DNA of 64,000 bases, from positions 479,731 through 543,730 of the forward strand of contig MNCI01000520.1 in the NCBI GenBank assembly GCA_015680685.1, given 5' to 3'. Within the stretch, counting starts at the first letter, position 1; each line of letters begins with the position of its first letter. This document shows, piece by piece, positions 17,201 to 47,900 of the stretch. A program made the position numbers and the translations under genes. Under the pieces are notes generated by a model that made no database searches, was not told the DNA's origin, and was given only the letters and a program-made list of their open reading frames with translations. This DNA is from Gnetum montanum. Taxonomy: Eukaryota > Plantae > Gnetophyta.

Positions 17201-20200
17201 TTGCCAAGTCCATAAATTCTATCAAATCTTGGATTTGTAGGTCGTTGTTCTTAAGCTTTGTTTGATGTATTAAGGTGAGGCTATCTAGGATAGGCTGCCA
17301 ATTTGGCAACTGTTGCATTGCTAAATTGATTTTAGCTTTAGCCATATGGATTTCCCTCTCATTAACTTGTTTATACATCTCAACCTAATCTGTAAAATGT
17401 TCTTTGAGCTTTTTATGTTTCTTGGCCTTGTTTTGCATGCACTAATTTCAATGGTAGACTCTTGACATATTGCATGTACTTCCTCCATTGATAAGGTCCT
17501 ATTTTCCTAGGTCAAATATTTGATGTCCAAGTTGACACGAGTGAACTGCTTCCTTAGTTGATTGATGCTCTCTTTAGGAGTGTGCTTCTCTTTTTCAACA
17601 TTGGTTAACCTTAATTTCTCAACAACAATCTTTTTATTCTCCTCTTCTAGTGCAACAATGGCTTTTGCATGAACATAGGTTTGTGTATTAGCAATTGATG
17701 CATTCCATGTTGCTTTCTCTTTCTCCATCTCAAGTTGCTTTTGTCTAGTCATCAATTGGTTCATGTGATCATCTCTAAACTGTTGTAATTATTATAGTGC
17801 TACATATATTTCAAGGTCTTGCCTCTCAATTCAAAATTGAGCTCAGTACTCTTGTAGTCTCTGTATTTCTGCCTTAGCATGTTGCATTTTGGTCTTAGCA
17901 ATGATCAACTTCTCTTTGATTGAGATTAGTTCATATTGAATTGTAGTGATATTGTTGGGGATGTCAAAAAGGTCTTGCATGACTTGTCCTATCTGCACTA
18001 GTCCGTGAAGGGCATCTTTATGTTCTTCTGGAGACATTAATTTCTTTCCTTTGCCCTTATCTTTCCCTAATGTTCTTGCTAGAGTTTGAACATCTTTGGC
18101 TCTTGAAATATTAGATGGTGGCACAATAGGAACATGAAAGGATTCCTTTATGTGATCAGTAATTGTCTCCATTGCTTCTTGGGCATCCTTGTGTTGCATC
18201 ACCACTACCATGGCTCAATCTCTTGACTCTAATGTCATTTGGAAGGATGCATTGGCCCCTGAGACTTTTTGTCATCTTCTTCAGCCTACAAAAAAATTTG
18301 ATTGCTAGTCGGTCTGGTCCATATTGCAGGGCAACTAGAGTTTTGTCTAATCCTGTACATACTAGAGACTTCTCTACTACCCTAGCTTACAGTTTTGGCA
18401 ATTTGTTGTAAATGGCTCATAATAGGACTATAATTTCTTCATTGAGTGGATGAAACATTGGGTCTTGCTCTTTTTGCTACTAGAGTTGATCCACTAGGTC
18501 CTACTTGTTTTGTTCTTGTGGTTGGAATGTTGGCCATGGTATTGATCATGCTGCAGCCTCAATGCTCAATGGCTTCTCCACTAGATCTTTCTTTGGAGGC
18601 ATTGGCTTGGATATTTTAGCGTAAGATGCATTTTGGGCTTTTCTAAGTTCATCATTAGTGTATTCCAAAATGCTTGCATGTCTGCACAGTTTTCTGATTA
18701 GGCAGGGAAATGGAAGTGTAGCCTTCCCTATTTTTATTTTTTCAAATCTTTGTTGGATTTTCAGAAATAGCAAATGAGCCATATTAGCTTGGAACTTTGC
18801 CATCAAAATAGTGCTTCCCTTAGCAGCATATGTTGAAATTCGGTACAGCCTCTTGGTGGGGAAAATATGATATGTTGTAATTTTGAAATAAATGTTCTCA
18901 GTTGTGGACAATTCATTATACTTCTTCTTAGTTGTCCCATAGACTCTTTGCAACCAAAGGTTTCTTGCATTTGTGTTAGACTTCGTAGAAATTTGGGTGA
19001 TGTTGGCTTTAAAATTTGGTAAATTGAGAGCCTTGGCAATGGCATTAACTAAACAAGGCATTGTTATGCTCTCAATTTTGATTTTCACATCATCTTGCCT
19101 ATTGTGCCAAAATTGATATGTCTCTCTAAGGTACCATTTACTATTGCTAGATAGTGTGGGCCAAAAGGGTGATGTTTTCAACTACTCACAAACTTCCGTA
19201 GGCATAAACTCCATTATAGGACCAAAATTCAATTTCACAATGACTATGGACATGATTGGTTTTTCATTGATTGCTTAGATATAGTCATGCAAGTGTGAGC
19301 TCTTGGCCTGGTTTTGGAGTAGGAGGTTTTATAGCTTCTGCTTGTGTGGAGTGCCCCGTTGGTGGTGTTGGCTGTAGAATCAAATGAGGTTGATTTTCCT
19401 ACTCTTCAGTAGAGGGTTTGTTCTCCTCCTTGTCCTTTGCCTCTTCCTCTTGGTCTGTTCTCTCTAGTAGGTTGTGATGGTCCTCCAGCTTCAAGGACTC
19501 TTTTTGGCAGCTTCAATGTCCTTAGTTTGCCTTTGCGAGGCACCATTCACTATTGCTAGATAGTGTGGTCCAAAAGGATGATGTTTGTAATTGTTCATGA
19601 ACTTCTGCAATTTAAAACTCCATAAAAGAACTAAAATTCAATTCCACAATGAATGTGGACATGATTGATTTTTCACAAATTGCCTGGATACAATCATATG
19701 CAAATGTGAGTTGTTGGTTTGGTTCTAGAGCAGGAGGAGGTTTTGCAGCTTTTGCTTGTGTGGATTGTCCTACTGGTGGTGTTGGCTGGAGGATCAAATA
19801 AGATTGAGCTGCTCTTCAGTAGCGGGTTGTTCTCCTGTTTGTCCTTTGCCTCTTCATTTTGGTCTCTTCTTTCTAGGTTACGACAGTCCTCCAGCTTTAG
19901 GAACTCTTTTTGGCAACATTTGCAATCACAGAACTTTGACTATCCAAAAATTCTGAAAAAAATTTCTACTTGCTCGTACCCTCTCATCAGATTTTGGATT
20001 TTGATTAGAATTGTAAAATATGTTCAATTTTTTAAAATTAGGATTGCAAAGTTGGAATTTCATCAATTTTGGAAAAAAGCCCCAATTTCAAGAGTTTGCC
20101 GAAATTTAAAAATGTTTGCAAGATTAATAATCCTATTGCTTAACCTAGATCTATTAATTGTGAATTGTGAAACGTTCCTAGGAGAAAGATCTTAAGTTCA

Positions 20201-23200
20201 TTGGTGTGAATCCGATTTAAAAATTTTAAAAAATTTATTCCTAGAAGTCATAATGAAACTATTAGATCATTGTTCTTCTTGTATTTCTATAGTCCAAGTG
20301 TTGGCAGGAATTTCCCAAAATTTATGCAAGTGTTTCCCCCACGATAGAGAAGCTTGCTGTGGGAGCTTAAGGATTCAAACAGAATTGAAATTTGGTTTGG
20401 GACATGGAACATGTGGCTCTTGGAAAATGTTATGTCTAGAAAATGACATGTAATCTGCTTGTGTTTTGGCAAAAATGAAAAATTTTCCTAATGGTTGGTG
20501 CCTATATATAGTTTTTTATAATGGCGATATTGTATATATGGTATCATAGGTGATGCGAACCCCATGGAACGTGGTGGATCAGCAATGGAGGCCACATATC
20601 TAGTAATAGTAAATAGGACCTGTGATCTCTCTCTTTCTGGTATTGCTCCTCTTCTTTGGATAGCTGTTGCAGTGTGACCAAGACCTCATGTTCCTCTTCC
20701 TTCAGCAATTCCCCAATTTCTTGTCAAGCTTGGATATCAAATAGTCTTTGTTGCAGTGCCGTGCGGGAAGCCTTGAAAAAATGTCTGACATTTTCATGCT
20801 TTGTATATCCTTTTTGAGGTGAGTGAGCCTATGTTTCAGGAAGTCCCTTGGGTTAGTCTGCAAGGGGTAATCACCCTAGATGTCCATCACTAGCTTATGT
20901 AGCTAGTGTTTCGTCAACCATGATCGTTTGAATCTAAATGGCACAGACCCTAGTTTGTTCGGTTGGTGAACCATACAAATCAAAGCTTGGTGATCGGATG
21001 CTCGTCGCTTGTGGCTAGTAATAGAGACCTCATGGTGAAGAAGAATTTCTGTACTAACCCAGACTTTATCAATCCTTACATCACAAAGACATGCCCTTTT
21101 CTTCTGTTACTTCAGGTGAAAAGGCATCTCTTGACATCAACGTCGACCAAGTCAAAGGTTTGGAGGAATTGTAGGAACTCTTGACTACATGGAGGAGGTT
21201 CGATGTATCCCCCAGTCTTTTCCCAAGCATACAGGTGCTAGTTAAAGTCTCCAATTAACATCTAGGCGTAGGGATGTAGGACATGCCCAACAATTCTACA
21301 GAGCTCCTGTAACCAATAGCCATAATTCTAGGGGCCATAGTAAGTTGTAATCCAGATTCGTTGCGGTGGCAAAAACACCGTAAGGCTCTTGGTAGGCTCA
21401 TCAACGATATCAAAACATGTGTGGGAGAGGCTGGCCAACCCTCCTACCCTACCATGGCAATCCACAAAATGGGAATACCACCCTTGCCAATGTAGAGAGT
21501 TACAATGTATGGTGTGTAGCTTAGTCTCCTGGAGGCACACCATGTCACAACCTTCATCTCACACTAATTCTTTCAAGGTACTTATTTTGTAGGGGTACCC
21601 TATCCCCTACAGTTCCATGACAAGATCTTCATGGTCTATTGGTGGATCTTTTTTTGTACATCCCTTTGAGAGTTGTTTGAGATCCCAAATTAATATCTTG
21701 TTGTGTCTTTTTATTCTATGTTTCTTGTCTCGTTGGTGTCCCCACCTTCTAGGATCTTGTGGAAATTGTAAAGCCCTAATCCTCTTACATTAGGATCTTG
21801 CGAGCAATTGGCTCAAATGGCAGGAGAGTCGACCTAGGCGCTGTCGACAGTCATCCTCCAAGAGGCAGAAGATTCCCACTAACAGGGTTGGTGTGTAGAG
21901 GATTGGAATACTTGCAGCAACAAGAGTGGGAGGCAGAGGGGAGGCGTCCCTCTCCTTGTCACCACTAGATCTATGCCTGGGACCCTCCGCAACAGGTTTA
22001 GGTGGAGAAACAATTGGGGAGACTTGACCCTTTTTCCTCACTAGCAACTAGCCATCCATATTTGTTTTGTTCTTAGGCCCATATGCCTTGGTGCAAATTC
22101 TACAATCCTTTGTGGTGTGGTTGCCCTTGCCAGAAATATCACGAGACCCAGGGGCTCTCTTATGGACCTGGGCCTATTTGTCCGAGGGGACATTCTCATA
22201 TTCTACATGTAGTTTTTCCTTCCTAGAGAGATCTAGGATGACCTTTTTAGTAGATTGTTTGGGGATAACGATCTTCAAACACAAAATCTTGTGTAACTCA
22301 TCCATTTCTTCGATGTCGTGAATTTGTCGAAGAAGATGAAATTGCCAAAGAGGCTTGCAAACGTTTTTAGGAAATTAGCCGTCCAAATCTCCTAGGGCAT
22401 CCTTGATCCAAATGGGAGCCCTCAAGAAGAGATTGGGGTTCCTATGCATGCTAGGCCGCTAATGAGTCAGGGCTAAACCCATGGCTCTAAAGAACCACGA
22501 TCTCCCTCAACAAACTTGATCCTACTCCTCTAGACTTTGAAAGACGAGCAAGAGATCCCTAGCAAGCAACCTAACTTGCACATCAGTCGTCCCCCATGAG
22601 GCCATGACCCAACGCTTAACCAAATCCAATCTTGGCCTAGCCTCGAAGGAGACAAACTTTCAAATAAGACTCAACTCCATGGTGCATAGCCCATCTGGTG
22701 ATGGAGCCTTCACCTACAGCTGTAATGTCCCTCTAGAACAAGAGGCAGACTCAATACCGCCAACCCTCGAGACCTAGCTGCCAATAGGACCACCACTAGT
22801 AGCATTGTGGCCCTCATTTGTCAAAGCCTTCTGCTCCAAAACCCCACTTGATGTGACATCCTTGTCAATCCCCCCCAATGCACCTTTCATCACCTTGCCC
22901 CCCTCATCTTCAGAGCGCACCCCCCCCCCCCCCCCCCTCCAACCCCGCTCCTGGACTCACCACGTCGGTTAAGTGGTCCTTTGCTTGTCCGTCCTCCCAT
23001 GCTTCGGTCCTCACCATTGTTACACACTTCTTGCTCCTCCCTACCTCCACCCATTCTTCCAAGTTCTCACTTACACATATATGCCGATGTCATATATATC
23101 TCTATAAACAATGTTGTCAATCATGCTTCGTATAATTTTTTTTAACTCACTCAACATTACTGTAAAAGGCTGTGATATTGTATCTATGATGTCATAGATA

Positions 23201-26200
23201 CGATATCGTAGCTCAACCATGATGTCATAGATACAATATCGTAGCTCAACATATGATGTTGTAGATGCAATATAGTGGACCATTGTTATGCCTATAAATG
23301 CAAGCCCACCATTGTGTCAAACTTACCTTTTGGTCCAACACTTAGTGAAATTCTTGCAGTTTGTTTTCATGAAGTTAGAGTTAGTTGTGAGTACTCACAC
23401 ACTTGGTGAAATTCTTTCAATTTGTTTTCATGAAGTTAGAGTTAGTTGTGAGTACCTACAGTGTGGTGATTAATAGTTGTACGACATCTAGATTCGAGTG
23501 GATTGTACTTGGACACATTCCATGATCAACAATAAAGATCAAGATTGTTTTTTATCATTGCAGCATTTCACTTAAATTAGATTTACTCATGCAATTTATA
23601 TTTTTGATGTTATTTACATTTTAGTGTTTGTTAGTTAATTGGCAGAATAAGAACAACTGATTTTGAGTGCACAAATATAATCATTTGGTAACCCAATAGT
23701 GGCTAAGCTTGATTCGCTCAATAGCTAGTCACTTGGTAATGTCAATAACGGTTATATTAGCCCAAGGCTTGTTTGGCAAGTCAAGAATGGATACTGATAG
23801 TTGTTATGCTAGAATAGCTTTATGTTTACATTGTTCTTAGTTAATAGAATTTGTGTTCGATTCACTATGTTTCACCTTGGTACTCTAAGAGCCATTCAAC
23901 ATTAGATAATCATGTACCTCACTTAAAGTTAAACCATAAATTTTGAACCTTGTTAACTCTGGTGAGAAGATAATGATCATGAACTTATCATTAGCTTGTT
24001 GGGATCCTTGTATTGTTCCATCCACGAATTATGATATAGTTACGCATGTACACTTGTGACTTGTGTGGTTGGGCGTTGAGAACTCTTGCCGCTCATCATT
24101 AGGGTCATGCCTATAAATAAGAGCCTATTGTTGTGTCAAACTTACCACTGATTTTGGAAGGTTTGGAATAGGAGCAATCGAGCAACAGCAGGAGCAACAA
24201 CAACAACAGGAGTAGCAACAACAACAGGAGCAGCAACCGCAACAGGAGCAACAGCGACAAGAAGAGCCCCAACGCCAGGCGTAGCCACAGGAGCTGCTGC
24301 CGGGGAAGGAACCCGAGCCGCCACAAACTCAACAGGAGCTGGTGCGGGACCCTGAACGGTCAGCCAACGAGGGGCAACACCCTCATGGTGACCATGCCTT
24401 GGCCGACGGTTGGGGGGGGGGGCGGTGCCCGGAGGCAGCATTGAGGCCCACTCCAGGGCCGAGGACACCCTGCACCTTTGGGTTACCCAACCCCCTCTTG
24501 AGGGGGTCCACACAATGCAACGGAGCCTTATCGGCCACTTTGTCTCGTGGGGCACACGTCCGCTACTGGACCTCATCTGGCGTTGGGCCCAGGAGCAGTG
24601 GCAGGTGGGGGAAGTCGGGGTCCGCAGCCTGTTTGCGGACCTCCTTTTGTTTATTTTTCCCTCCCGGCAAACCAGGGATTCGGTTTTGCTGGGAGGCTCG
24701 TGGTTCTATGGAGCGAGGGGTTTGGCGCTGACCCCATGGCACCCCAGGGCCCATCGTGAGGCCGACTTGTTTTCTAGAGCCCCGGTTTGGATGCGAGTTT
24801 CTAGGATCCCCTAGGAACTTTGGAACCTGGGTTTCCTGCAGCAAATCGTAGGATTCTTTGGCGAATTCATTGCCTTCGACCGGGTTACACAATCAATGGA
24901 ATGCATGGGCTTTGCCCATTTCTACGTTTGGCATCGGTTGGCGGAGAAGGACCTTATTCGTGAGGTTGTCTTGGAACTCTCCGGGAGGGAAGAAAAACTC
25001 TAGGTTGAGTTCGAAAACCTGGAGGCGGCGGCAGGCCCCAAACGTGGTCCTGCGACCTAGGGAAACCACACAACCAGTTGCATGCGCTGCGGAAAACCCG
25101 GCCATCAGGAAGCGGCCTGTCGGGTGCGGGGGCAGTGTCCACGGCTGCAGAGACCAAGGGCCCAGGCTAGACAGCTGTTCGAAGGGGGCGAATGGGTCAC
25201 CATGGGCCGCAAGGGCCAGATACACCTGACCTCCAACACATTGCCCCCCCAAAGCCCCCCAGAAGCTGCGCCCCCAAAGACCCCCTAGAAGCTGCGCCCC
25301 CAAAGCCCCCCCCAAAGGTGCCCCCCTTCCCCGCCCACCCCCTCCACCCTCTCCAACCTCCCGCACAGTNNNNNCATCCCTCCACCTCTTTCCATAACCC
25401 ACAACACCACCACAGACCCCTCCCGAACCCCCATGTTGCCATTACCCACCACCCCAAGAGAAATCGAGATCCAACTCCCCCCCTTGGCGAATGGGTTAAT
25501 GTGGTGCGGGGGAGCTCCAAACCCCGTAGGCCCCGTAGGCACCAGGGGCCAGCAACCACACCCGAAGAACCTGGATGCAGCCCGGTGACGCATAGTAGCG
25601 AAGGCCGCCCCGAGCAGCCGAACGAGAATCGAGCCAGAGATAAGTAGACCTAGCGGAACATCGACATGGGGCTCCAACAGACCCTTCGGGAGGTTTACCA
25701 GCGCCGCACCCCCAGTCACCCATGAAGTTGCTCAGTTGGAATTGCAGGGGACAGGGTACCCCCTACAAAAGAAATACCCTACGCAGAATTGTTCGAGATG
25801 AAGATTGTGATATTGTTTGTCTCCAGGAGACCAAGCTGCAGGCAACGGAGTTGCACTTCCTCCACTGGGAAGGGTGGACCATCCACGTGCACCCTTGCTT
25901 AGGCCGAGCCGGTGGCCTCACCATCCTGGCTTGCTACGCCATGAATCTCACAGATGCATCGTAGTGGGCCATCACTGCCCAGCTCCCCTCACAAGGGGTC
26001 TGGTTGACTAATTTTTACGGGGCATAGAACTGGGAGCAGCGGTTACACGAGTTGGCCCGAGTGGCGGCGCTGATTCTAGACCATCGATCGTGGATAGTGG
26101 TGGGGAACTTCAACCAACGCCTCCACCCTTGGGAGAAGTCTGGGGGGGCTACCCCCCCTCCACCGGGAGAGACTGAATTCCAGACTTTTCTGGCAACCTT

Positions 26201-29200
26201 CTCCCTGGTCGACCTGCCCATTGAGAACTGCCGTTTCACGTGGAGTAATCGAAGGAAAGGCCTAGACCGCGTCCTCACCTGAATTGATCGGGTTTGCGTC
26301 AGCACTGACCTCCTCCTCCATTCCTCTGTCCGTGTGTCGGGGCAGGAGAGGGTCGCTTCCAACCACCGTTCGTTGACCTGTTTGATCGGGCTGGATAAAC
26401 CCAGGGCCCCATGTTTGTTCCGCTTAGAAGTGGCTTGGTTAGCCAAGCCATGGTTGAGGCCATTGGTGGAGGAGATCTGGGCAGACTATCGGCCTGGCCA
26501 GGGGGACCCGCGGAACTTCCTTAAGGAGGGCTTACTTCGGTTGAAGTGGGCCATCAGGGCCCTTCCTGTGGATGATAAGTTCTCCTTTCAAACGGGCCTA
26601 CGGACGCTCTGTGATCAGCTTGGCCAGATCTAGACCCGACAGGAGGCAAGAGAGGACTTGCACGCGGAGGAGCAGCACACATTGCGTCAGCTTCAGTCCC
26701 TTGACCGGGAAGAGGAGACATACTGGCGGCAACGTTCCCGAGTCCAATGGATCAGGGAGGGAGATAGACAAACCAGATTCTTCTTTGCCATGGCCAAGAC
26801 ACGTGGGGGAAGTCAACCACGATGTCTTCGCAACCAGGACGGGGAGACAATTGATGATCCGCAGCGCATTGCGCACGAGTTGACGCAATACTGGGGTGGG
26901 ATCTGGGCCAAGCGCCCCACCAGGCCAATCTCGATCCACGTATTGCGAGTGCTGAGTGAGCACGACAACGTATGGTTGCTGGCCCCTTTCTCTTGGCAGG
27001 AACTCACGGCTACGATCAATAGCATGTCGGCAGGAAAAGCACTTGGTCCTGACGGCCGAAGCCTTGAGTTTTTAAAGACGTTTGTAGATATTGTGGGACC
27101 CAATATCCTAGATGCGTTCAACCTCATGCTGGCCAGGAGGCAAATCCGAAGGAAACTCAACTGCTCCCGTATTGTGTGCATTCTGAAGCAATCTGACGCA
27201 CACTGCCCTGAGCACTTCCGCCCTATTGGAGTTTGCAATGTATTCATCCGGATCTTCTCTAAGCTACTGGTGCATAGGCTTGTACCGCTCATGCCCAGGC
27301 TTGTGGGGATCAACCAGGCGGGTTTTGTGCAAGGACAGGCCATTCAGGACCAGATCCTCCTCATGTAGGAGGTGCTTCATTCGCTTCGAAATTCGGGCTT
27401 CCCTGGGCTCTGCCTCAAGCTTGACATCACTAAGGCACACGACACGCTCAGCTGGGAGGCATTGCAGTCCATTATGCACCTGAAGGGGTTTGATCCGTAG
27501 TTCATCCGACTTTGCATTCACATGCAATCCTCGGCTGATTTTTCCTTTGATGTGGGGTGGGGGGAGGGGGTGGGGGCGGTTGCGGGGCCTCTCCACACCA
27601 GGTCGGGGGTTGAGGCAAGGGGACCCACTCTCACCCCTCTTCATCATCGCCATGGACTTAATGCAACACTATTGCAGCACATCCGGGGTGGATGGTCTGA
27701 GCATTGCCGGGGTGGCATGCCGGGCTGAACACTATGCGGACGATACAATGTTGCTCAGTAGGGCGGCGGTCCCACAGGCACGTTGCATCAATGTTGCTTT
27801 GTCCCGCCTGGCTGCCGAGTTGGGGCTGGTAATCAATAGGACCAAATCTTCAGCTCACTTCATTAATGTGGATGAACAAGTTAAAAATCGGGTGATACAA
27901 GTTTTGAATATCTTGCTAGGGACAAACAACGACATATCTGGGCATCCCCCTCTTCAGGTGGGGGCGGACCATGGCGTGGGGCCCGTTGTTAGAAAAAATC
28001 GAAAGAAGAATGGGCCATTGGGTGAATAGATTCTTGAGCTGTAAGGGGCACCTGCTTGTGGCTACAGGAATCCTCATGGCAATTGCTCGCTTCGTGGTTG
28101 CCGTTGCCACCCCCCCAAGCGCCGTCATCAATGCAGTTAACACGTTGATTCACAACTTCATTTGGGAGGGGGGAAAAGGGGGGAGCAAAATCCATTTGGT
28201 CTGCTGGGAACAGGTGGTGTGCCCCCGAAATGCGGGTGGATTGGGCATCACGTCATTCAAGGATGAGCTAATGCTGGGACAACAGTTAGTGCTTCAATTT
28301 TCACGCCCACATAGAGAACCGATCCCGTGGATCCGCATTATGAATAACAAATATCTACGTTGGGAGGTAGGGGCACGGGACTCTAGGCCCTGGCAGACGT
28401 TGTGTCGGCACGCATGTGCGATGTAGGCCTTGGGGTGGGAGTGCCTCGAGCCATGAGCCGTTTTGACGGCCAAATATCCTCGAATTGACAGATGGCGGTG
28501 GATCTGGCAGGGGTGGTTGCCCGAAAAAATCAAAATCTTCCTGTGGTTGTTTAAACGCGATGCACTGCCCATATGGGCCTTGCTGTGGCGGTGTGGAATA
28601 CTGAACAGCGACACGTGTTCTACATGCCACGTTGCTGCAGAAACAGCGCAGCATTTCGCATTTGATTGCCCTTGCATGTGCGCCACGTGGCACGCGGTGG
28701 CAACGCCCCCCTCGAGGCGCCTCACGAGTGACTCTTGGGCCATGCTACTTTTAGCGTGGAAGGCACGAAATAACACTATTTTTCGGCAGCAACAGCGCCC
28801 CCCTCCGCAGCGGCTGGTCTCCCAGGCTCTCACCGCGTGGAAGGAAATCGAGGCGACGATGGGAATCATGCCCACGTTCGAGCCAGACTGCGTCGCGTTC
28901 TAGGAGGACGAGGCGCTTTGGCAGATGGTGGCCCAATGCGGATGGTCTGACCCTTTGCAATGGCTGGTTGGGGATCCAGATTTGGCAGACGACGCGTTCT
29001 TCTCCAACTGGGTCAACGACCGTACCTTTTTCCGAGGGTGTGAAATTTGGATTACAGAATCTTCGATTGCCAGCTGTCTGGGGGCCCCGATCGATGGAGA
29101 GATCATTTTGCCCTCCACCCGCGGCCTCCAGGATGTTGAAATGTTCTTTGATGGGCCCGTTCCCTGTACCAGGAGCAGACAAGTACCTAGATCTTCCCTA

Positions 29201-32200
29201 CCCCGCCTATGGGCCTGGGGCGCAGATTTGGTGGACCGATACTTTGTCTAGTTTGGCAACGGCTCCAAATTGCAGGGCCTACAGTTCGCTTTCCTACGCT
29301 GCCTCAAGTTGGGGAGCCAGGTCAACCTCCTCTGCTTTTTTAAGGAGGCCCTTAGACTCAAGCGTTGTGGCCGCCACTCTGGATTAATTTTGGCGCTGTG
29401 GCGGGGGGCAGAGGGGGGGCAACACCCGTCGTCCTCTGCCCCCCCGAGGGGGGTCTCTTCGGAGTGCCCCCCTTCAGCTCGGCCACAGGACACTACGACG
29501 GTGCTTAGACAAGGGGGCGATTGGCCCCGCTGGGGTTCCACCGTTACGCGGGGTCGGAGGACCCCGTGGGAGTGGCGCCCCCCCCGAACGCCCTGATAGA
29601 CCGGCTTCCCCCCCACTAGAGACCTCTGGCCAGGGGAACTGGAACGAGGAGCTTCGGCAGGCCACGCAGAGGGCGGCGGACGAAGCTCGGGAGGCGGAGA
29701 GGAAGGAATGGGAAGCCAAATGGAATGAAGCCCTCGCGTAGGCCCGGGCCGACCTAGAAGCCCGGGTCGCTGAGCGCGAGCAAGAACAGGCAAGGCAGCA
29801 GGACCTCATGGCTAAAGCTGCTAGGGCTCGCCTCATTGACGAAATCAGGGCCCAAGTGTGGGAAGAATTGACCCAAGAGGAAGAGGCCCAGAGATGACGT
29901 GAGCAGGCGGAGTGGGGGGAGTAGGAGTGGCTTTAGGAGGAGGAGGACCAGCGATAGAGACAGCTTGACCACGCCCACGAGCATAACACCCGACAATGGC
30001 TAAGAGGGGGGCGATGCCCGTACCTCATTCTTGGCATCAGCTGTGAGAGCTCCTGGGCTGAACTCAGATGACATATCCGCCGAACCTCGGTGCGCTGCCA
30101 CCCAGATGCAGGAGCTTCGCAGGCTGACAGGAGTAGAAGGGAGTTGGCCATGCATGGCATCCAGCAGGCGGCCAATTTCATGGACTCGGAGGATCATCGG
30201 AACACTTTGGATATCCTCCACGAGCTGGAGTGCCCCAACTGCGCCTGCCGACGACTGCTGACGAACCCTTAGAGGGTGGTCGGGCCTGGGTAGGGGGGGA
30301 TGCTTGCCCCCCATCTACCGGGTTGATGCCCCCCTGGTCTTCTTCGTTGTTCTGGCTCTTCCTGCGGGTGGGCGGGTGGGGGTGGTGTGCCCCCCTCTGC
30401 TGTCCCTGGTGGGGGGTGGCCCCCCTCGCTTACTTTGGGGGGGGGGGCTGCTCCCCCGTTGTTTCCTGGGGGGGCACCCCCTGCTGTTTCCTGGGGGGTT
30501 GCCCCCTGCTGTTTTTGCTGTCTTGGGAGCTGTATTGATTAATTTGGGGATCATCCCCTCTCTCGGAGGGGCCATTCCTGATGGCCTACCACTTGTAATT
30601 TCTTGTAACATATTTTGTGTTTTTCAGTAATATAATCCCGACTACTTTCTCAAAAAAAAAAAAAAAAAAAACTTACCACTTAAGGAAATATTTGTAGCTT
30701 GTTTTCGTGAATTTGGAGTTAGTTGTGAGTGTCCATAGTGTGGTGATTAATAGTTGTATGACATCTTTATTTGAGTGGATTGCACATGAATGCATTTGAT
30801 GACCAACAATAAAGATTGAGATTGTTTAAGATCATTGCAACATTTCACTTGGATTAGATTTACTTTTCTATGCAATTTATATTTCCAATGTCATTTATAT
30901 TTCAATATTTGTTAGTTAATTGACAAAATAAGTATGACTGATTTTGCGTGCACAAATATAAGCATTTGGTAACCCAGTAGTGGCTAAGCTTGGTTTGCTT
31001 AATAGCTAGTCACTTGGTAATCCTAGCTAGGGTTATATTAGCCCAGGGCATGTCCATCAAGTCAAAAACATGTGCTTATTGCCATTAGGCTAGAATAGCT
31101 TTATGTTTACATTGTTCTTAATTAATAGAATTTATATTCAATTCACCATGTTTCACCTTAGTACTCTAAGAGCCATTCAACACGAGATAATCATATACCT
31201 TAGATAACCTTCAATGCAGGGGTTTTGATCTGGTGTCTTGTTGTGTCCTTTTTTTTTGTTAGATTGAAACTTTTGAATACCTTTTTAAGGAATGTGCTAT
31301 TCAGAGGGCTATTTCTGTCGGTCCTAATCTGTGCAATAATCCTGGTTCACAAAACCTATTATATGGCTTTCTTTTTGTTCTCTCCAACACATCCCAGCTT
31401 CATCAAGTCACCTATAATTGAACCTATCTTTTTTTTTGGCGATGTCAAAAAGCTCTCTCTGGGCTGTTGCTGTTGTTTTGGAGCTGCTTTGTTATTGATG
31501 CTTATTTGTTTTCAATAAGATATGATGTACTTTTGGTGTTTCTCTTTCTTCATTTGTCTAGGCTGTTGCAGCTAATTGTGTATGCTTGTTCATTATTTGT
31601 TGCATACTTTCATTTGCTCTTGCTTTTGATAGCTTAGTCTTATATTTTTGTTATTTTAGAAGCCTTAAATCAGTAAATAAAACAACAGAAACAGATAAAG
31701 TTGTCTTCATGTTGTGTGACAGATTTCAAAATATAGAAGACCAAGGAGAGCAGCTAGATCATGGTTGAAATATACAGGAACTGCAATTGGCATTGCAGCC
31801 TGTTCCACATGGATTTTAAGCCATAGTAAGTTAATGGGGAGTTCTGATCTAGATAACTGGATCAAGGAAGCTAAAGAATCAACAATTGCATTTTGGAAGG
31901 ATCATGTAGAAAGTCCGGTATTGCTAAATCAATATTCTTTTTAACATCGATTTTGTTTTGAACTTAAGTCGTCTATGTTCCTGTTTTATTTAAAATAGAA
32001 TTTTTCTGTTTTGGCTTTTGAGGTATATTTTTGTTGTTTTATGTTTAATATACTGCCGTTCAATGAAGAGACTGTTTCCTGTGTTCTGTCAGCTTACTGT
32101 TGTAGGCATCAACGGAATCTTTTTTGCTGGTTCTGCTAACATATATTTTGAAGAGTCATGTGCTATACCTGTAATATTATTATAATTTTCAGCTTGTTAG

Positions 32201-37218: not shown

Positions 37219-37493
37219 TTTCCTTCTGAAGATAGACCAATGCCAATTTTGAAGTTTGTGCCATTCTTCATGATTTGTCTATAATTAATCTCAAGCTGAT
37301 TTATTTTTGAACCATTGAAGGTTTCGTTCACAAATTGTCTAAAAACGAAGAGTTGTACATCTGAAAAATTAAAATTTCAAATTGCTTGGGCACCAATTGA
37401 TTCTTCTTTTTGTTAATGCTCACTTAATTGAAACTCAGTGTAAATGTTGGAGATGGGATTGCCAAGGCCAAGAGAGGGCTTTTTTGTTGGAAG

Positions 37494-39182
37494 TGTAGCG
37501 ATCGAAAATGTCGGTGGCTGGAAAACACTGAGGGGTTGGCGGGCACGACAGTTTCGACCCCGTACCCACGGGAGGGCTGTGCTGGGTGTGTGCAGATACG
37601 AGGTGCCCTGAACGGTCTGGTCGATCAGATAAGGACGTAATCGGCGTTCATATAGCTTTTTGCAATGTATATTTTTGAAACAAGAACAAAAATGCGAAGT
37701 AATGCTTGAAAGTGAATAAAACAGGAAAATAGTGCAAAACACAATAATAAGCAGGAAACAAAGTAAAATGCGGTTACAAAAATGCACCACTCTGAAGCTA
37801 CAAGCTTGCTCTGTCGAGGTGGATACAGTTGGTTGCACAGCGTGGCGGAGTGCAGAGATCTCGAGAGTAACCAGGACATGTAGAGCAAAATAGGTTGTGC
37901 GCTTGGGCATGACCTTGGGCGTTGACAATGCATGGATTCTACCAAGGTGGTAGAAAGGGGGTGGAGCAAGATGCCAGCTAAAAATGTTAACTGTTTGCAA
38001 TGTTAAACAGAAAGCTTACAATACTTGATGTTACAATGTGCCAGAAAGAGAACTTAAGTGCCAGAGAGAGGAAAAGTCGAAGAATCTAGAAAATCTTCGA
38101 GCTTTCTGAATGTTGCTAGTTGGAAAAAATTCGAACTGTTTGAATGTTGTCTTTTTTAGGAAATTTCCAATCGGCCTTTTGAATGCTGCTCGTTAGGGTA
38201 TTTATAGGGCTAAAGGACATGCGAAAGGGGCGGTTTGGATGCCACATGCCTCAGGCCCACGTTGACTTACTGGCGCCACACGTGCCATGTATGACCGTTG
38301 GACCTACAAGATCGTTGTAATGCAAGTCTGTTATGTCATAATTGTGAGTCTGCTATGTCGTAATTACGTCGTCAGCATTTGGAGATGTGTGCCAACGGTC
38401 TAATTAGGTGAAGTGCATTGATGTTGCACAACCACTTGCATGCCCTGCTGTGCTTTGTAGCGTAGCATGCTTAGTGTAGCGTAGCACCTTGTCGTGCATT
38501 CTGCTACATGTGTGTTGCATACTTGTTACGCTATGCTATGCTACGTAGCGTAGCGACTGGTCTTAGTCGCGAAAGCTTTGTTGATTTGCAAACTTTGCTT
38601 TTTGCGATGCAAGACTTGCGAACTTTGCTAATTCTGCCCTTTGAGCTGCCTTCTATCTCTTTCGCAAGATTGCCATGCCTCGATGCACCATGTAGCTCAG
38701 CGTAGTGTAGCAGCAGACATGATCCGCTGCTTTTTGACGGAAAGGGACATTGTTGAAGGACTTGAAATTGGGCGAAGGAAAACTAGCTGTGAAGTTGTTG
38801 CCATGCTACGCTACATAGTGAGGCGTAGCGTAGCGTAGCACTTTGTTCTGTAATCGTCTTCTGAAGCTTGCTATGCTACATAGTGAGGCGTAGCGTAGCG
38901 TAGCAGACTTTGCGACTTAGAAAACTTGCCGAACTATTTTTGTGCATCCAGAATGTTGCTGCCAACTCCGCGCACTGTTTCTGAGCAGGCTGTCGGTTGG
39001 GCAAGCTACTTGGGTGGATAGGCAAGGTGACCCGTAGAGCTTATTCATGCTCAAAGTAGAAAATTTGTCGAACTGGTCGGCCTGAACTCAGAACGTTCTC
39101 CTCTTGAAGAACTGTCGTAGTGCTGTGCAAATTGCAATGCCTGGTGAAGCGAGAATGACCCTGTATTTTTTGGGGTGTTTCA
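37494..39182 (-). repeat. Tat element 3' LTR
   Basis: TG...CA termini; collinear with 54575-56258; adjacent PPT acaaagagggaccaa on the minus strand at 39183-39197; TATA ctataaata on the minus strand at 38199-38207. Confidence 0.95.
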
Positions 39183-40199
39183 TTGGTCCCTCTTTGTCGA
39201 CGTCTGGAGAATAGGCTCGATAGATGTCGACAAAGAATACAAAACACCATAGCAGGCGAAATGTTGAGGTTGTCGCTCGGTGAGTGTTGAGACGTCGCTT
39301 GACTACACTTGAGAGTGTTGCATTGGTTTTGTAGAGGTTAAGGCAAAGAGCAAAGATGATGTTTAGCAAAGTCCCTCGTCAGAGTGCTCTGGGGGGCTTG
39401 TTTGCGTTTTCATCTTTGGTTGGTGCTGTTCTTCAACCTTTCGTAGGATAGGTGTTTCCTTCACAAGATGAGTTACGTTACATCCGTGAAGGGTTTTAAC
39501 TTGCCTACAAACGCTTTTCATACGGCGAGTTGTGTTACGCACGTTATGGAATTTGCACTCTAAAGTAGCCAAGCTAGCTGAGGCACTTGCTTCACGACGT
39601 GGTAGCATTTGCTGCTGTAGCAAGACGTGCCCACGGGGGCAAAGGTCTTGTTGGCTGCTGTTGTTGTTGAAGCTGTTGGGCATCGTCGCTGGCGTGCGAT
39701 GTCCAAAGCAGGAAGGCCAACAGCGGCCTTGGTAGTATTGGTGTGGAGGAGCTGGCCTCCTAGGCGTTGGGAGTTGCTGTGGGTGTGGATGCTTTGGAAT
39801 CCCTACCAGGGGCTTGCATTCTCGGTTCAGCGATGGGATTAGCTACCACATAGCTAATGTCGTGCGAGCCCAGGCATTGGCAGGGAGCTGGAGTAACGAT
39901 ATTGTGGCTGGGCCACAATACTGTTGACACTCCAGATGTGGGAACTAGCCTAGGAACCACCGTCAGGGTGATGGGCCGTGGTGACGGTAGGTTCGGAGGG
40001 CTAGTATAATGCAATACAGCATCTTCGGAGGGTCAGCATGATGCCAAGGGTGGCGGTGCTGCATATGTTTCGGACCGCGTTCTCATTGCGTTGTGAACTA
40101 CGTTCTGGAGCCGCGACATCCCACCCACGCGTCGGCATCGCGCCCACTCGTTCGATGTGTATCTGGTGCTGGTGCATGTTGGGGATGTGACGCGAACAC

Positions 40200-40605
40200 A
40201 ATTTAAGGTTCTGGTAGACCGTGTGCTGGTTTAAGGTCCCAGTGGACCGCTGCGTTGGTTTAAGGTTCCAGCAGATCGTACATGCCAGTTTATCGTCGTA
40301 GTGGATGTGCAATGCCAGTTTATAGTCATAGTGGACTAGCAGTGCCAGTTTTACGTCGTAGTGGACGGTTGCAACCAGTTTAACGCCGTAGCGGGCATTG
40401 CTCGATGCCGCTAGTTTATTGTCATTGCGGACGCTGCTCGGTGCTGTTGCCAGTTTATCGTCGTAGAGGACGGTGCTTGGTGCGACTGCCAGTTTATCAT
40501 TGTAGCGGACAGTGCTTGTTACTGTTGTCAGTTTATCGTTGTAGCGAACGGTGCTTGGTGAGACTGCCAGTTTATCGTTATAGCGGACGGTGCTTGTTGC
40601 TGTTG
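40200..40605. repeat. Tandem array downstream of integrase (units about 30 bp, then about 39 bp)
   Basis: Core gccagtttatcgtcgtag(t/c)ggac repeated about 10 times. Confidence 0.85.
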
Positions 40606-40612
40606 TTGTGCT

Positions 40613-43600
40613 TCAGATGTAGTACAGCTTGAGATACGAGTGATTCACCAGGTTGGCGAACTCGTTGTCGTCTATGTCCGCCAGCTTGAAGGCTCCATTT
40701 CCAAAGGCTTTAGTGACCACGTAAGGACCTTCCTAGTTGGTTGAGAATTTGCTCACGTGCTCACGGACGGCCTTGAGGACGAGGTCTCCCTTCTGCACTG
40801 GCTGTCGATGCGGGTCTGCATGGTGCTTTTGCTGCTGCTTGCTTTGGTAGTGCTCAATCCGTTTCAGCGTCTGCGCGTGCTCCTCCTCCACTGAGTTGAG
40901 GTCAATGGTTTGCGACTCATTGTTCTGGGCTTCGCTCACGACATTCGCGAGGATCATTCGGAGTGATGGTACCTGCAACTCAAGAGGCAATACAGCTTCA
41001 GATTCGTAAACAAGACTGTAAAGGGTCTTACTTGTTGCAGTTTTGCACGTCGTTCTATAGGCCCAGAGGACGTAGAGGATTTGCTCATGCCACCACCTCT
41101 TGTTGTTGTTAAGCATCCGCTTCAGCAAGTTGATGATGGACTTATTTGTAGCCTCCGCCTGCCTGTTCACTTGCGGATAATAAGGGGAAGAAAATGATTA
41201 TTTAATGCTTAGATTGCTACAGAAGGTTTAGGTTTCCATACTGCTAAACTGTGGCCCATTGTCGGTCACAATAGTCATTAGAAGCCCAAACCTTGTTACG
41301 ATGTTGTCGAGGATGAAATGGTAGATTTGCTAAGACATCGTTTTCCTCAGGGGAATAGCTTCCACCCACTTGGTAAAATACTTAGTGGCGGTGATAATGA
41401 AGCTATGCCCTGCGGAGGACTTAGGCGTGATAGGCCCTATGAGGTCTAATCCCCATCGTTGGAAGGGCCACATGATTTGCATTGGGTGTAGGTCTGTAGG
41501 TGCTATGTGTATGAGATTTGCGTATCTCTGGCACGTGTTGCATGTCTTAACTTTCGACAGGCAATCACGTTCCATGTGGGGCTAGTAGTACCCTAGGCGT
41601 CTGATTTTGGCAGCCATAGCCCTGGGTGCTATGTGTCCACCACATAGCCCCTCATGTACTTCATTAACTACCTTCTGCTCTTGCTCGCCACCCACGCATG
41701 CTAGCAATATCCTGTCGTAGGAGCGTTGGCATAGGGCATCATTTCCCATGAGCACGTATTGCCGGGCACGCTTACGGATTGTATCTCTCTGGGTAGATGT
41801 TAATCCTCCTGGGGGTTTGCCGTGCTGTAGATAAGTTTTAATGTTGGCATACCACTCCTGGGTATCTGCAGCACTAACAGATGCCACGTGTCCCACTTGA
41901 GTGATAGGCTCTGCACATTCTATAATTGAGGTTGGAAGGTTTGCCAGGAAATGTGATGGAATGTTTAACGCAAGGGTAGCCAAAGTGTTTGCCATGGCAT
42001 TTTCGTTACGTGGCACGTGTTGCACATCTGTGGTTGCAAACTGCTTAAGCAGGATTTTTGCTAGGTCGCAGTAGGGTTGCAGGTGCATAGCTTTGCAGGC
42101 GTAGACCTTGGTGATTTAATTCACGACTAGTTGTGAATCTCCCTGGATTGCTAGGTGTTGTATGCATAATGCTCGGGCAGTCAAGAGGCCTCTGAGTAGC
42201 CCCTTGTATTCTGCCACATTGTTGGTGTAAGGGAACACAAATCGATAAGTGGATGGATACACTTCTCCAGAGGGGAACATGATCACGCGGTTGAGGCGTT
42301 GTCGAAATGTAAGGTGGCTTCGGAATGCGATGGGACGATGTGGACATTGCTAATGTATTCATCCAGGAATTCGGGGTCTATGGTTGCCTGGTCGTCGACT
42401 GGTGAGGCCGTGAGTTGGGTTGCTATGGCTTGACCCTTTGTCAACGATTGATTTACATAGCGTAAATCAAACTCCGCAGTTATTGCCTTCCATCAGGCTA
42501 TCCTGCTACTTTCATATAAGTTGTTAGTGATAGCCCGGAGTATATTGCTTTTGCAAATGATATTGGTTGTACTGCGGAACAGGTAATGCTGCCATTGTTT
42601 TAGTGCGAACACTAAGGCCAGGCAATTCCTCTCCACTTCGTTGTATTTCGCCTCGTGCACTATTAGTGCATGACTCAGGTACTACACTGGTATCTCAGAA
42701 CCATTGTCTCATTTCTGACATAGCAGTGCCGTGACAGATGTGTCGGAGGTGAAGGATTTATCCCTTTGTGGCGGATGCATGGTTGGGAGGTGTGAGAGTT
42801 CCTTCTTCAGGTCGTTGAAGGCTTGTTGACACTAGGTTGTCCATTCGAAGTTAATCCCCTTCTTTAGAAGATGTTGCATGGGGTCTAACTTGTCGGTCAA
42901 CCTTGCTATAAACCTTCGAATGAATTGCACTCTACCTTGTAAACCACATAACTCCTTAAGGTTTGTGGGAGGTGCTAGGTTGACGATGGCCTTGACTTTG
43001 TCAGGGTCCACCCGTATTTTGGCCTTCGACACTACGAACCCTAACATGCATCCAGTTTTCACCCCAAAGACACACTTCTTAGGATTGAGGCATAAGTCGT
43101 GCATTTGGCAACATTTGAGGACTACCCCTAGATCGTGTGGGTGATCAGCTGCCTCCTTGGACTTGACTGCTATATCATCCATGTAGTCGTTTAATGTTTC
43201 TAGGATGTAGTCACTGAAAATGTAAGTCATAGCTCGTTGGTAAGTTGCTCCAACATTCTTGAGCCCGAAGGGCATCATGGTATAGCAAAAGGTCCCTCAT
43301 GGGGTCATGAAGGTTGTTGACAGCTGACACCCTGAGTTAATGCTGATTTGGTTGTATTCGGAGAAACCATCCATGAAGGATTGTAGAGCATGGCCAGCCA
43401 TGGTGTCGATGAGCTGGTCAACGCTTGGAAGTGGGAAGTTGTCCTTGATCGTTGCCTTGTTCAAGTCCCGGAAGTCTATACAGATTTGTATTCCTCCCGT
43501 TTTCTTTGAAACCACAATGACGTTGGACACCCACTCTGAATAGTCAACCGTGTGGATGAAGCTTGCTTAGTATAGCTTAGTGATTTCATCCCTCACGGCT

Positions 43601-44094
43601 AGTGTGATTTCCGGCTTAACTTTGCGAGCCTTCTGCTTGATTGCCTTCATGTGTGGGTTTAGGATGATGTTGTGCTAAATCAGTCGCAGATCTAGACTCG
43701 GCATGTCGCTGTACAACCATGCGAAGACATCGATGTTGTCTTGCAGAATCTTAGCTACGCTTTTGTGCGTTTGTGTGTCTAGGAGGGAGCTGAGTCTTAA
43801 TGTTTTCACCTTTCCCTTTGACGTGGTCACAGGCGTCTCGACGAAAGGGTCTTTGGTTACATCCCCGGCCTCTAGGTCTTGGGCTTGGACCAGATGCTTG
43901 GGCCAGTCTGGGGATGCTTCTAAGGCTGCTATAGTGCTAGTTGTGGTCGACCCTCAATCGATCATGTCGGGGTTCAACTGTCTCGCGAGCTTGCCTTGTG
44001 GCCTTGCTAACATTAAAGGTGTGGATAGGTCACGATGGATTCCCATCTCTTGCTTGACCTGCCATCATAAGATGAAAGCTTGGTTAAGAGGCGT
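40613..44094 (-). pseudogene. Tat pol: RT, RNase H, additional RNase H (aRH) and integrase
   Basis: DVFAW, CIDFRDLNKA, FMDGFSEYNQI, MPFGLKN, YMDD; aRH TNNVAEY...GDSQLVV...HVPRNENAMA; INT HEGLCGGH, WGLDLIGP, WAYRTT, *EGPY; end LKLYYI*. In-frame stops and at least one frameshift. Confidence 0.95.
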
Positions 44095-44946
44095 CTGTTG
44101 GCAGAGATTGTGCGTAATGAAAATTTGCAAAGCAGTGACGAGATGCAACTTGCGAAGTGCGATGATGTAAAGATTGCAAGCTTGTCAGTTTAGGATCATG
44201 GCGGACTGCCAAGGCACAAGAGCATAGAACTGCTGACGTAAAGTGTGAAGTTATGTGACTGTCGATATACAAATGCCGAACTGCTAGTTTAGTGTCATTT
44301 CGGACTGCCAAATTGTATCATGTAAAATCTTATCATGCGAAATAATAGTATGTGAAACGGGAAATTGTGAATATGAGAAGTGCCAAATCGTCAATGTGAA
44401 AATACTAACTGCTGACATGAAAACATGAAACTGTTGGAAATTGCGACACTACCCATGTGGAAGAAGATGCGAAACCCGCCCGTGTAAGCATGCAATGTTG
44501 TTAATTTAACATCATTGCAGACCGCTAGGGGTGCAACTATGCTAGGGTTGCTTAGTTTGAGGTCTTTTCAGACCGGTCGTATTGCGATTGCCAGGATTAC
44601 TAGTTTAAGGTCTTTTCAGACCCTTAATCAAAAACAAATATTTTTTTTTTCGGGAAGGCAAGTAGTTGGCTTGAAGCATGTCAATGCTTAAATGCTAATA
44701 GTGCTACGATGTCGTGGCGAGCATGCTACGCTGTACGGTGTGCTTCGCATTAATCGGAGAGAGAGAGAGGCAAGTTTCCCTACCTTGTCATTATGGCCAT
44801 AAATAGGGGTTAAACTTTGGCAATTTTACCATTTTCATCATAAGAGTGTAGAGCACACAAGGTGATTTCGGAGTGCGAAGAAATTGTGTTAATTGACTAG
44901 TAAGGAAAGTTTTTGCAGTGAAAGGTGTAAATCTACAAGCAGGACA

Positions 44947-47900
44947 ATGGCTCCTAAGACTCATCTGGCGCTTGCAAGGGTTGATGAGGTGAAGAAGACC
45001 CTGGGGCGTGTGCCACAAGCGCACGTTGCGGCGTGGAAGAGCACACCATTGACCCAGTAGGTTACTATGTCTCCTTTGCATTTTTCATTTTACGCTTTCT
45101 GTTGTTCTCTGCTTTTTTTTATGTCCTATTCGTTTTGCGTCCATTCTTGGCTACTTGTGTTTTCTGTGGTCGCGTCATTTTAGCCTTTGCATCGCCACTA
45201 TCGTTGTTTTGGTTGTGGCGGATGCATAAATGTTACATCGTGGTTGCATGCAAGGCCATTGAAACCACCACCGCCGCGGTTGTCATAACCGTGGGGCTGG
45301 GGCAGTTTAAGCTACTTGACCCTAGCATGCCATAACGTAAAACCCTTAGGAGGGCTAGGCCATGTGTGATGCAGTAACGCAACACATATTTGTTTAGGAC
45401 ATGTCATCAATTGTTTTGTTGCTACACTAGGCTTATTCACATGTTCTTGCTACGCTAGGCTTTCATGCCCTTGCTACGCTATGTACGGGCAGAGGGTTGT
45501 GCTACGCTATATACATGGATTGCTAGACTTTGCTACGTTGTGCGTGTATTTCCTTTAAGTATGATGCTAACATTCGCTGATTGTGTCATGCAGGGCGGGG
45601 CCGAGGTCCAGGCTGATCGTTTTGGACATTAGAAGGGTCCTGTGCCATGTGAACAGACTTGTGGCCAACGCTCCTCCTCCCCAGATACATTTGGGAGAGT
45701 GAGTGGTTTGGTTCAGGAAAGAGGCACAGGACTTCTTGCAATTCCTTCTCGACCACTTTAGTGTAATCGTTTGGTTCTCCCTAGAGGAGGAGGAGGAGGC
45801 ATCTGGCATAACAGAAGCCATGTTGCCTGGGGCAAGTCGCAGCATTCTGAGATTTTTTCCCCCCCGGGCAATCATGAGCAGGCAGGGAGAGGGACCCAGC
45901 CAACGCTCAACAAGGTTAAGGCGTTTAGCTTGGATCTAGGACATGCCTGAATACAGCTGCTACCACCAGTACAACACATTGTTCCTCGCACGTTACATGG
46001 CGACGTGCTTTTAGAACCCACAGGGGACTGTCTATTGTGCTGGCGGGTGAGTTTTGTAGCCTTGCTCCGCTGTGTTGTGCAATGCTGGCCATATTGGTCG
46101 AATGCTAAGAGTATGTGTTTGTCACCAGGTTCTTTATTAATGATGATGGGGTTCATGACCGATTGGGTCTGCTGGCTACAGCGCAGCTAGCCCTACAAGA
46201 GTTCTCTTCTACCAAGAACCTGTGGGTGGGTGTGATTGGTCAGTGCGAAGGAGAATACCCTACCTACCCAGGCACGTTTCATGTTCTCTACAATCAGTGT
46301 AAGGAGAAGGGTTGGTTGGATAAGGAGTGGGAAGAACCCTTCAAGCCGGTCACGGTTGAAGAAGCTATGATGGTTGAACTCCCGCCATTCCCGTTACCAT
46401 ATAAGCCTGGTGGATCAAACAGTAGGTGTCACATGCTCAAGTGTTTTTTCAATCCATGTATTTTGTGTCGTTATGCTAAGCGTGTTTTGTGAAAATTGTT
46501 GCAGGGGCGAAGAAGCCCTAGGAGGTGACGGTGGTGACCACTGAGACGCAGGGGGCAAACATCTACTTCAAATATGGCGAAGTAGAAGCAAACCAGTGCT
46601 GGTTAGACCATGGGACCTCAGACTCCTTGGTCAAGAACGTCTGAAAGGTGGGGCTTATGGATCTGTTCGTGGCCCCGAATCTGAGCATTCCTACCACCGA
46701 GATGCTTTCCCTGGTCAACTCCTTCTCTAAGAGGACGGACCATTTTCGCATGCGCGTACGGGATGTGTGGGTGGTCATTGAAATCAATGACCAGCTGTTC
46801 ACGGACCTGTTCGGTGTTCCTGCCAACAGCATCCCCATAGGGTCGAAGCGCAAGCAGGAATTGACCCTTCGGAAGAAGGATATCGAGGAGTGGTTGAGGC
46901 TCGTTAAGGAGCGAAAAGGGTTCTCCATGGATAAGCTTAAGGGCAGACCCACCATGGAGATTTACCCGGTCTTCCGTGCCCACACATTCCCCCAACTGCT
47001 CACCCAAGGGAAGGTCCTGGGACTCGAGTAGGCCTAGATAATGCAGGAGGTTATGGAAGAAGGGACCCATTACAACTAGGCCAGCTTCCTATGTAAGGGC
47101 TTGCAGGTTGAGATTTTGGGACTCCGTGAAAAACTGGATTCTCACTCCAACATACACTATGCCTTCTACATAGGCTATCTGAAGCACTTCGTGGAGTTTC
47201 TGGTGGTTCGAGAGGATGAAGTCTAGGCCATGCGAGATCACAACTAGATTTCTAAGTCGTGGATTCGATAGATCCTCCAGACCACACGAGCCCAAGATCC
47301 CCCAGAAATGATCAGGAAGTCATTGTCTATAATGAACAAAGATCTAGTGGCTCACAGCGTTCATGGCCAGGACAGCATAGGAGAGACGCTCCTTGCTATA
47401 GCCGGTAGTGTGATGCGGGGGGAATGTCTCATAGCCGAGACTATGCCCAAGGAGTTGCGAAGCAAGAGATCTCCCCTAGCAAGGGAAACCCTTCGCGTGG
47501 AGGAAGAGGAGGGACGAAGATTATGGCTTAAGCTGCAGAGGACGCAACCCCCCATTGGTAGACGCTTTCATGTAATGCTTACTTTGCTATTGTTTGCTAC
47601 GCTATGTTGCGCTAGGTGGTGTAGTGTAGGGTAGCATCTGCTTTGAGCTAATTTGTTTTGAATCGATGCAAACATGCTTCTTTGCTAGCAGAGGAAGAAG
47701 AAGAAGAAGAAGAAGGCGATGAAGAAGTATCGGAGCTTAAGATGAGGCCGACGAATGATGATATGGAGGCCCCAGTTTCGGAGGAAAGGGCCTTGGTCAG
47801 GAATAAGGGAGCTCCTGTTTCTAGGGCAGGGGCTCTTGTCATTAGGGAGCCTCCTACCAATGAAGAGGCACCTCCCTTGAATAAAAAAGATGCTGGTCTC

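Follow-up and report, generated by a model that had tools for sequence, protein, structure and literature searches.

A window of 64,000 nt on contig MNCI01000520.1 of Gnetum montanum, plant DNA with many retroelements, was analysed around three genes whose globular cores are here named A, B and C (Table 1). Core A is of the Transposase_32 type, core B lies in the 3′ part of an L1-type long interspersed nuclear element (LINE), and core C belongs to a gene antisense to a Tat-type long terminal repeat (LTR) retroelement. On balance these are probably three separate transposon accessory genes, the clearest being that of a full-length L1 whose second open reading frame (ORF2) continues into core B, a long helix and a J domain likely to recruit Hsp70. 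That each gene is built of a globular core, a linker and a helix is supported by the data below; the interest of the locus rests on the L1 tail, not on homology among the three. A first-pass annotation had quoted one peptide from each core, and six-frame translation found all three where it had placed them: A in an ORF at 18546-19181 (minus strand), B in frame from 28904 with a single internal stop, and C, interrupted by stops, at about 46612-47202.

Between 9 and 60 kb lie 172 stop-to-stop ORFs of at least 72 amino acids, and the Pfam scan covered 146 of these; repeats and LTR pairs were sought by self-BLAST of the window. Read depth in the DNA run X1 is summed contig depth, which differs from copy number; it was mapped on 15000-31500 for the L1 and core A, and single contigs have a depth of 5-11. 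The oligo-dT RNA run X24 is an unstranded library in which 6555 of 7786 reads are less than 90% alike.

Table 1. Coordinates of the features in the window and the evidence for each.
Feature	Position	Strand	Evidence
Helical, coiled-coil-like tail 3′ of core A, decayed, with frame changes	17300..18199	-	heptad score reached by 0/200 shuffles
Core A, divergent Transposase_32 (Athila ORF1-type)	18549..19205	-	PF20167, E 7.9e-8
409-bp tandem duplication over 5′ part of the A gene	19129..19915	-	79% identity
12-bp target-site duplication (TSD), 5′ copy	24138..24149	+	exact 12-mer, in the window only here and at 30669-30680
L1 ORF1, DUF4283	24392..24811	+	PF14111, E 3e-11
L1 ORF2 endonuclease	25644..25961	+	PF03372, E 1.6e-9
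L1 ORF2 reverse transcriptase, broken	26634..28026	+	PF00078, E 1.3e-3 and 1.5e-7
L1 ORF2 zf-RVT region	28457..28900	+	PF13966, E 2.5e-13
Core B, about 170 amino acids	28904..29413	+	zf-RVT frame; stops at 28901 (before) and 29249 (inside)
Long charged helix, shifted frame, preceded by proline-rich linker	29577..29990	+	44% E/K/R/Q
J domain with HPD motif	30018..30212	+	PF00226, E 1.7e-5, model positions 2-63 of 63
Poly(A) tail and 3′ TSD copy	30647..30680	+	sequence
Tat-type element, 3′ LTR	37496..39181	-	88% over 1686 bp against 54577-56257
Tat pol, broken: reverse transcriptase, RNase H, archaeal-type RNase H, integrase	40700..44300	-	Pfam matches
NIF/FCP1-like phosphatase domain, N-terminal half	45613..45822	+	PF03031, E 0.0033
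Core C of antisense accessory gene	46612..47202	+	contains stops; no Pfam match
Coiled-coil tail of antisense gene	48407..48900	+	JAKMIP_CC3, E 8e-4, a generic coiled-coil match
Tat gag and protease-like region	50189..53401	-	Retrotrans_gag, E 1.2e-6 at 52262-52507
Tat-type element, 5′ LTR	54577..56257	-	pairs with 37496-39181 (self-BLAST)

The L1 element and its tail

The segment 24138-30680 (plus strand) is one full-length plant L1 insertion of 6.5 kb. The parts of a plant L1 are all present in order (ORF1, endonuclease, reverse transcriptase, zinc knuckle, poly(A) and TSD), and since the same 12-mer stands exactly at 24138 and again after the poly(A) at 30669, the entire 6.5 kb is a single insertion. 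The frame of the zf-RVT region, followed from 28457 to 29593, contains two stops only, both of them TAG and resembling the decay stops of the endonuclease and reverse transcriptase; a stop of the latter type, at 26025, is read differently in other copies. Core B matches no Pfam family. The J domain spans the whole PF00226 model including the HPD motif, at a score of 25.3 bits against a cut-off of 27.8 in this stop-bearing copy. GC content is uniform along the tail (0.57 in the zf-RVT region, 0.56 in core B, 0.59 in the J domain). X1 depth is 4660 on core B, 2708 on the helix and 3483 on the J domain, with 5533-6361 on the reverse transcriptase, and in two DNA runs the depth of the tail is of the same order as that of the reverse transcriptase; X24 depth is about 75 + 69 on core B and about 50 + 47 on the J domain. 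The L1 with its tail is a repeated, transcribed family, which is as far as demonstration extends. We infer that intact copies may produce a single ORF2-B-helix-J protein.

A short cysteine cluster, possibly a metal site, follows the J domain at 30213-30260 (plus strand), and five N bases occupy positions 25370-25374 in the interval between ORF1 and the endonuclease.

The genes of cores A and C

Core A belongs, as judged by its profile matches, to the Transposase_32 family, of which it is a divergent member. It scores 32.8 bits against PF20167, below the cut-off of 45, over model positions 22-176 of 177, and 18.8 bits against an independent profile built without it, a score reached by 0 of 500 shuffles and the highest among 1020 chunks of the window. 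The name Athila-like, given to it in the first-pass annotation, holds for the type of domain and not for the surroundings: the Pfam scan and self-BLAST found no gag, reverse transcriptase, integrase, pol or LTR pair beside it. That core A sits in an intact Athila element was considered and rejected, neither gag-pol nor LTRs having been found around it; the present copy is perhaps a fragment. The core is repeated elsewhere, with an X1 depth of 1,260-2,200 that falls upstream to 430 and then to about 60 (over 16650-19960), and many contigs exit the window near 19136-19195, which together with the drop in depth indicates that the usual upstream partner of A is missing here. Upstream of A are the tandem duplication and then a truncated second L1. 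The latter (20550-23100, minus strand) lies directly upstream of the A gene and comprises a 5′ region and an endonuclease, 78% identical to that of the other L1 over 125 nt; it is cut off on its 3′ side, a truncation unusual for an L1.

The element that contains core C is assigned to Tat on its LTR pair and on the separation of gag-protease from reverse transcriptase, RNase H, archaeal-type RNase H and integrase, a layout that fits lineages IV-VI in PMC4408406. Its pol matches RVT_1 (E 9e-15), RVT_3 (E 1.2e-6) and Integrase_H2C2 (E 0.017), the protease motif near 50.4 kb is a by-eye reading with no Pfam match, and no TSD was identified at the ends of the element. The antisense gene, between gag-protease and reverse transcriptase, is ordered as NIF-like domain, core C, acidic linker and coiled coil. 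X1 depth over the antisense interval is gapless at 6,800-19,000, with 11,800-36,800 in the LTR bins, and there are small or partial skips only among the 15 joints listed of about 2,400. The possibility that the antisense gene is an obvious nested insertion was rejected, there being no inner repeat pair and the depth being unbroken. As the first-pass annotation had proposed, two of the three genes carry a host-type module, the J domain (PF00226) and the NIF-like domain (PF03031), each scoring below its cut-off.

T-rich, intron-like segments with a GT start and an AG-like end occur at the frame changes of the antisense gene (46422-46505, 47558-47691 and 48226-48327, plus strand). At 40285-40606 and 49521-49990 the Tat element contains tandem arrays, their units being 39 bp and about 76 bp. 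A stretch resembling a primer-binding site seems to follow both LTR copies (37496-37512 and 54577-54593), and the element may be recombinant.

Several observations weigh against three accessory genes of which one continues ORF2. The stop at 28901 could be the true boundary between ORF2 and an ORF3, core B being a separate ORF3; X1 depth drops to 1121 in the bin preceding core B, and the junction between the zf-RVT region and core B is crossed by 0 of the 24 contig pieces listed (of about 77,600). The DnaJ score is short of the Pfam cut-off, as is that of the NIF match (17.6 bits against 21.8), and of DxDx(T/V), the catalytic motif of FCP1/NIF HAD phosphatases, this copy keeps the first Asp and lacks the second. 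RNA depth is no more than about 0-3 on cores A and C, and just 0.3-3 or so per strand over the antisense interval. The X24 reads, mostly less than 90% alike and from an unstranded library, demonstrate transcripts of the family, not protein.

Relationship among the three cores

According to the first-pass annotation, which judged a remote similarity by eye, one domain with the same order of motifs appears to recur in all three genes, with a low-complexity linker and then a coiled coil after it each time. Behind every core there is indeed a linker and a helical, charge-rich stretch. Of 200 shuffles, 0 attain the heptad score of the A tail, 15 that of the B tail and 4 that of the C tail; the score is crude and a weak test of coiled coils because core A without its tail itself scores high (1 of 200 shuffles). 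The order of motifs is not shared above chance, since pairwise Smith-Waterman scores are reached by 642 (A-B), 168 (A-C) and 215 (B-C) of 1000 shuffles. Pairwise alignment of hidden Markov models by hhalign likewise gives probabilities of 0.05-0.17% among A, B and C. No significant test supports one domain in all three, and core A alone could be assigned to a family.

Profiles of known families place neither core B nor core C significantly. Two sets of Transposase_32 sequences were used, one of 119 loci fetched by a motif (10 of 10 checked exceed the family cut-off) and one of the 120 top-ranking among 659 proteins, for the most part from soybean. With Transposase_32 profiles that exclude A, B and C, the score of core A is reached by 0 of 500 shuffles, that of core B by 65 and 145 and that of core C by 21 and 126, and at one earlier iteration the score of core C was reached by 6 of 500. 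With a thin, three-locus profile of the plant mobile domain (PMD, PF10536), cores B (29 of 500 shuffles) and C (13 of 500) are borderline and core A has no match (94 of 500). The Transposase_32 and PMD profiles score 13.3 with each other, within the shuffled range of 10.7-20.9, and the neighbours that the Atlas lists for a Transposase_32 protein are ATHILA ORF1 and unnamed clusters only; for cores A, B and C themselves the Atlas returned nothing. In hhalign with the thin PMD profile, PMD 58-97 aligns with B 33-70 (E 0.028, 0 of 25 shuffles) and PMD 54-98 with C 31-79 (3 of 25 shuffles), both of these best alignments falling on the PMD hallmark block. Cores B and C appear to lean weakly towards PMD. 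The contigs L120, L121 and L122, short and from bacterial genome records, carry plant PMD genes and are most likely plant contamination.

In a glocal profile test of low power, core A reached a z of just 2.0, and a decoy from the Tat gag reached z 4.4, above all three cores. The decoy (51900-52507, minus strand) matches the N-terminal block of Transposase_32, probably by chance. Searches for homologues yielded 1 of 98 candidates for core A and, for core B, 0 of 624 candidates among proteins of 350-2000 amino acids and 0 of 159 stretches in metagenome contigs; the PMD motif had 0 occurrences in viral contigs. A blended A/B/C profile run against 1.84 billion representatives returned two matches, a relative of A and a repeat artefact, and sequence searches of the PDB gave no real match. 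AlphaFold models were too poor (mean confidence score pLDDT 35.5 for core A, 53.5 for a family member), and fold searches with them, in which Foldseek gave no E below 0.001 and the best VIA Z was 3.6, were uninformative on fold.

The tests are of low power because core A, a true family member, is detected through its C-terminal half only, the profiles are either legume-heavy or of three sequences and the copies are decayed; with the fold models poor as well, a shared domain is neither demonstrated nor refuted. Common ancestry of all three cores is possible at somewhat less than an even chance. An equally tentative proposal is that A, B and C form one remote superfamily (Transposase_32/Athila, PMD and VANC), a scaffold swapped between classes of transposable elements and decorated with host modules. 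The layout of core, linker and helix common to the three is consistent with it, as are the best alignments of B and C, located in both profiles at the N-terminal motif where they would be expected, and the comparison of core C with PMD locus L121, reached by 2 of 300 shuffles as one of nine such pairs; the homology of PMD and VANC was itself seen by structure alone (PMC13547354). However, no result holds after correction for multiple tests, pairwise scores remain at chance, core A fails the PMD profile and the decoy gag surpasses all three cores. Slightly less probable is that the cores are unrelated, generic amphipathic helix-hairpin-helix patterns looking alike and the layout having converged. 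Every pairwise and profile test is non-significant for B and C, and several distinct domains (PMD, Tr28 and Athila) are known with coiled coils, but this argument is blunted by the same low power that left even core A half detected.

Possible roles, known systems and other features

VANDAL DNA transposons are established to encode anti-silencing proteins, and the accessory ORFs of LTR elements are suspected of the same; none was found for LINEs in the literature search. VANC counteracts DNA methylation, and accessory proteins of such a layout attach to DNA or chromatin and form oligomers through their coiled coils (PMC13547354, 10.1101/2024.09.27.615353). By analogy, the cores might bind the DNA or chromatin of their own elements and oligomerise through the helix or coiled coil. 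In the L1, core B would sit on the DNA of the element and the J domain would bring host Hsp70, by which a silencing complex would be stripped or remodelled, while in Tat, core C would bring the phosphatase-like module, and silencing would be loosened, as VANC does. We infer every step of this anti-silencing role (DNA or chromatin binding, helix oligomers and a host-type effector), which is accordingly offered as a tentative and somewhat doubtful proposal.

Hepadnaviral reverse transcriptase depends on chaperones, and the main rival to an anti-silencing role, itself rather unlikely, is that the J domain fused to the ORF2 protein calls in Hsp70 so that the reverse transcriptase is folded or activated on its own RNA, with no part in silencing. 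Consistent with this, the ORF2 frame path ends in the J domain, at the place that RNase H takes in other plant L1s (PMC4408406); yet a globular domain of about 170 amino acids and a long helix separate it from the reverse transcriptase, which is the layout of a stand-alone accessory gene. It is unlikely, more so than either of these roles, that one DNA-binding scaffold of the PMD/VANC/Athila type was passed between LTR elements and LINEs in the plant lineage, armed with a J domain in the LINE and with a phosphatase-like module in Tat, both anti-silencing. If it was, the L1 would be the first LINE with an anti-silencing arm, the scaffold being welded to its reverse transcriptase. That the tail is functionless passenger DNA from 3′ transduction is very improbable: this L1 copy is broken throughout, but the zf-RVT frame is shared, the junction has no internal poly(A), GC content is even, depth is like that of the reverse transcriptase and the HPD motif is kept.

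Domain-plus-coiled-coil accessory genes in LTR and DNA elements, captured host enzymes and the anti-silencing idea are already known. LINEs of the plant L1 clade, among them some with an archaeal-type RNase H at the C terminus, have the same DUF4283 ORF1, ORF2 of endonuclease, reverse transcriptase and zf-RVT, poly(A), TSD and extra module at the end of ORF2; their module is RNase H, whereas here it consists of a domain of unassigned family, a helix and a J domain. VANC, and the host proteins MAIN/MAIL1 with PP7L, resemble the genes described here in joining a globular domain to a coiled coil and in partnership with a phosphatase-like protein, but they belong to DNA transposons or are host genes, and homology of B or C to them was not significant in the present tests. 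The partner phosphatase of MAIN/MAIL1 is of the PP7 type, not the HAD type. VANC matches the PMD protein MAIN structurally, and models of the VANC and Athila domains show pentamers with coiled coils (PMC13547354); VANC is an anti-silencing protein whose DUF1985 is similar to the PMD of MAIL1 (10.1101/2024.09.27.615353).

The additional ORF of Athila (PF20167, or ATHILA ORF1 PF03078; sunflower Athila 14, PMC11728184) resembles core A in its PF20167 match and coiled-coil tail, but core A is below the cut-off and adjoins no gag, pol or LTR. The extra ORFs of Tat, Ogre and Retand, PMD-CC and Tr28-CC (where CC is a coiled coil), accompany the same order of reverse transcriptase, RNase H, archaeal-type RNase H and integrase and include an antisense gene ending in a coiled coil (PMC4408406, PMC11963269, PMC7264820). 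PMD-CC and Tr28-CC occur in Tat, for which the flowering-plant layout is described (PMC4408406), and extra ORFs are placed on the 5′ side of gag or the 3′ side of pol (PMC7264820, PMC11963269), whereas the gene described here lies between gag-protease and reverse transcriptase and combines a NIF-like domain with a core that has no significant PMD or Tr28 match. Orchid Gypsy elements with a captured AlkB demethylase (PMC9289625) likewise have a host module fixed in an accessory ORF, for which counter-defence was proposed; that module is a different one, in an LTR element and with activity shown in vitro.

In the literature searched, which included PMC6338049 but lacked many subscription papers, neither a J domain nor a PMD/Athila-type tail was found in any LINE, and a NIF domain in no Tat ORF. 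An L1 family with a fixed domain-helix-J tail is a system for asking if LINEs recruit chaperones or fight silencing, and a test case for accessory scaffolds crossing classes of transposable elements.

Elsewhere in the window, a remnant of an L1 reverse transcriptase at about 14300-14700 (plus strand) was recognised by eye in a six-frame reading, the Pfam scan giving no match there. An ORF resembling a host exon and matching NCA2 (31720-31941, plus strand; PF08637, E 2.9e-5) suggests that a host gene may contain or adjoin the elements. A dispersed, AT-rich repeat, whose read depth is very high at 6,400-15,000, has four copies, at 15124-15972 (minus), 23152-24098 (plus), 30677-31200 (plus) and 59732-60044 (minus); two of them form inverted arms around core A and two flank the L1.

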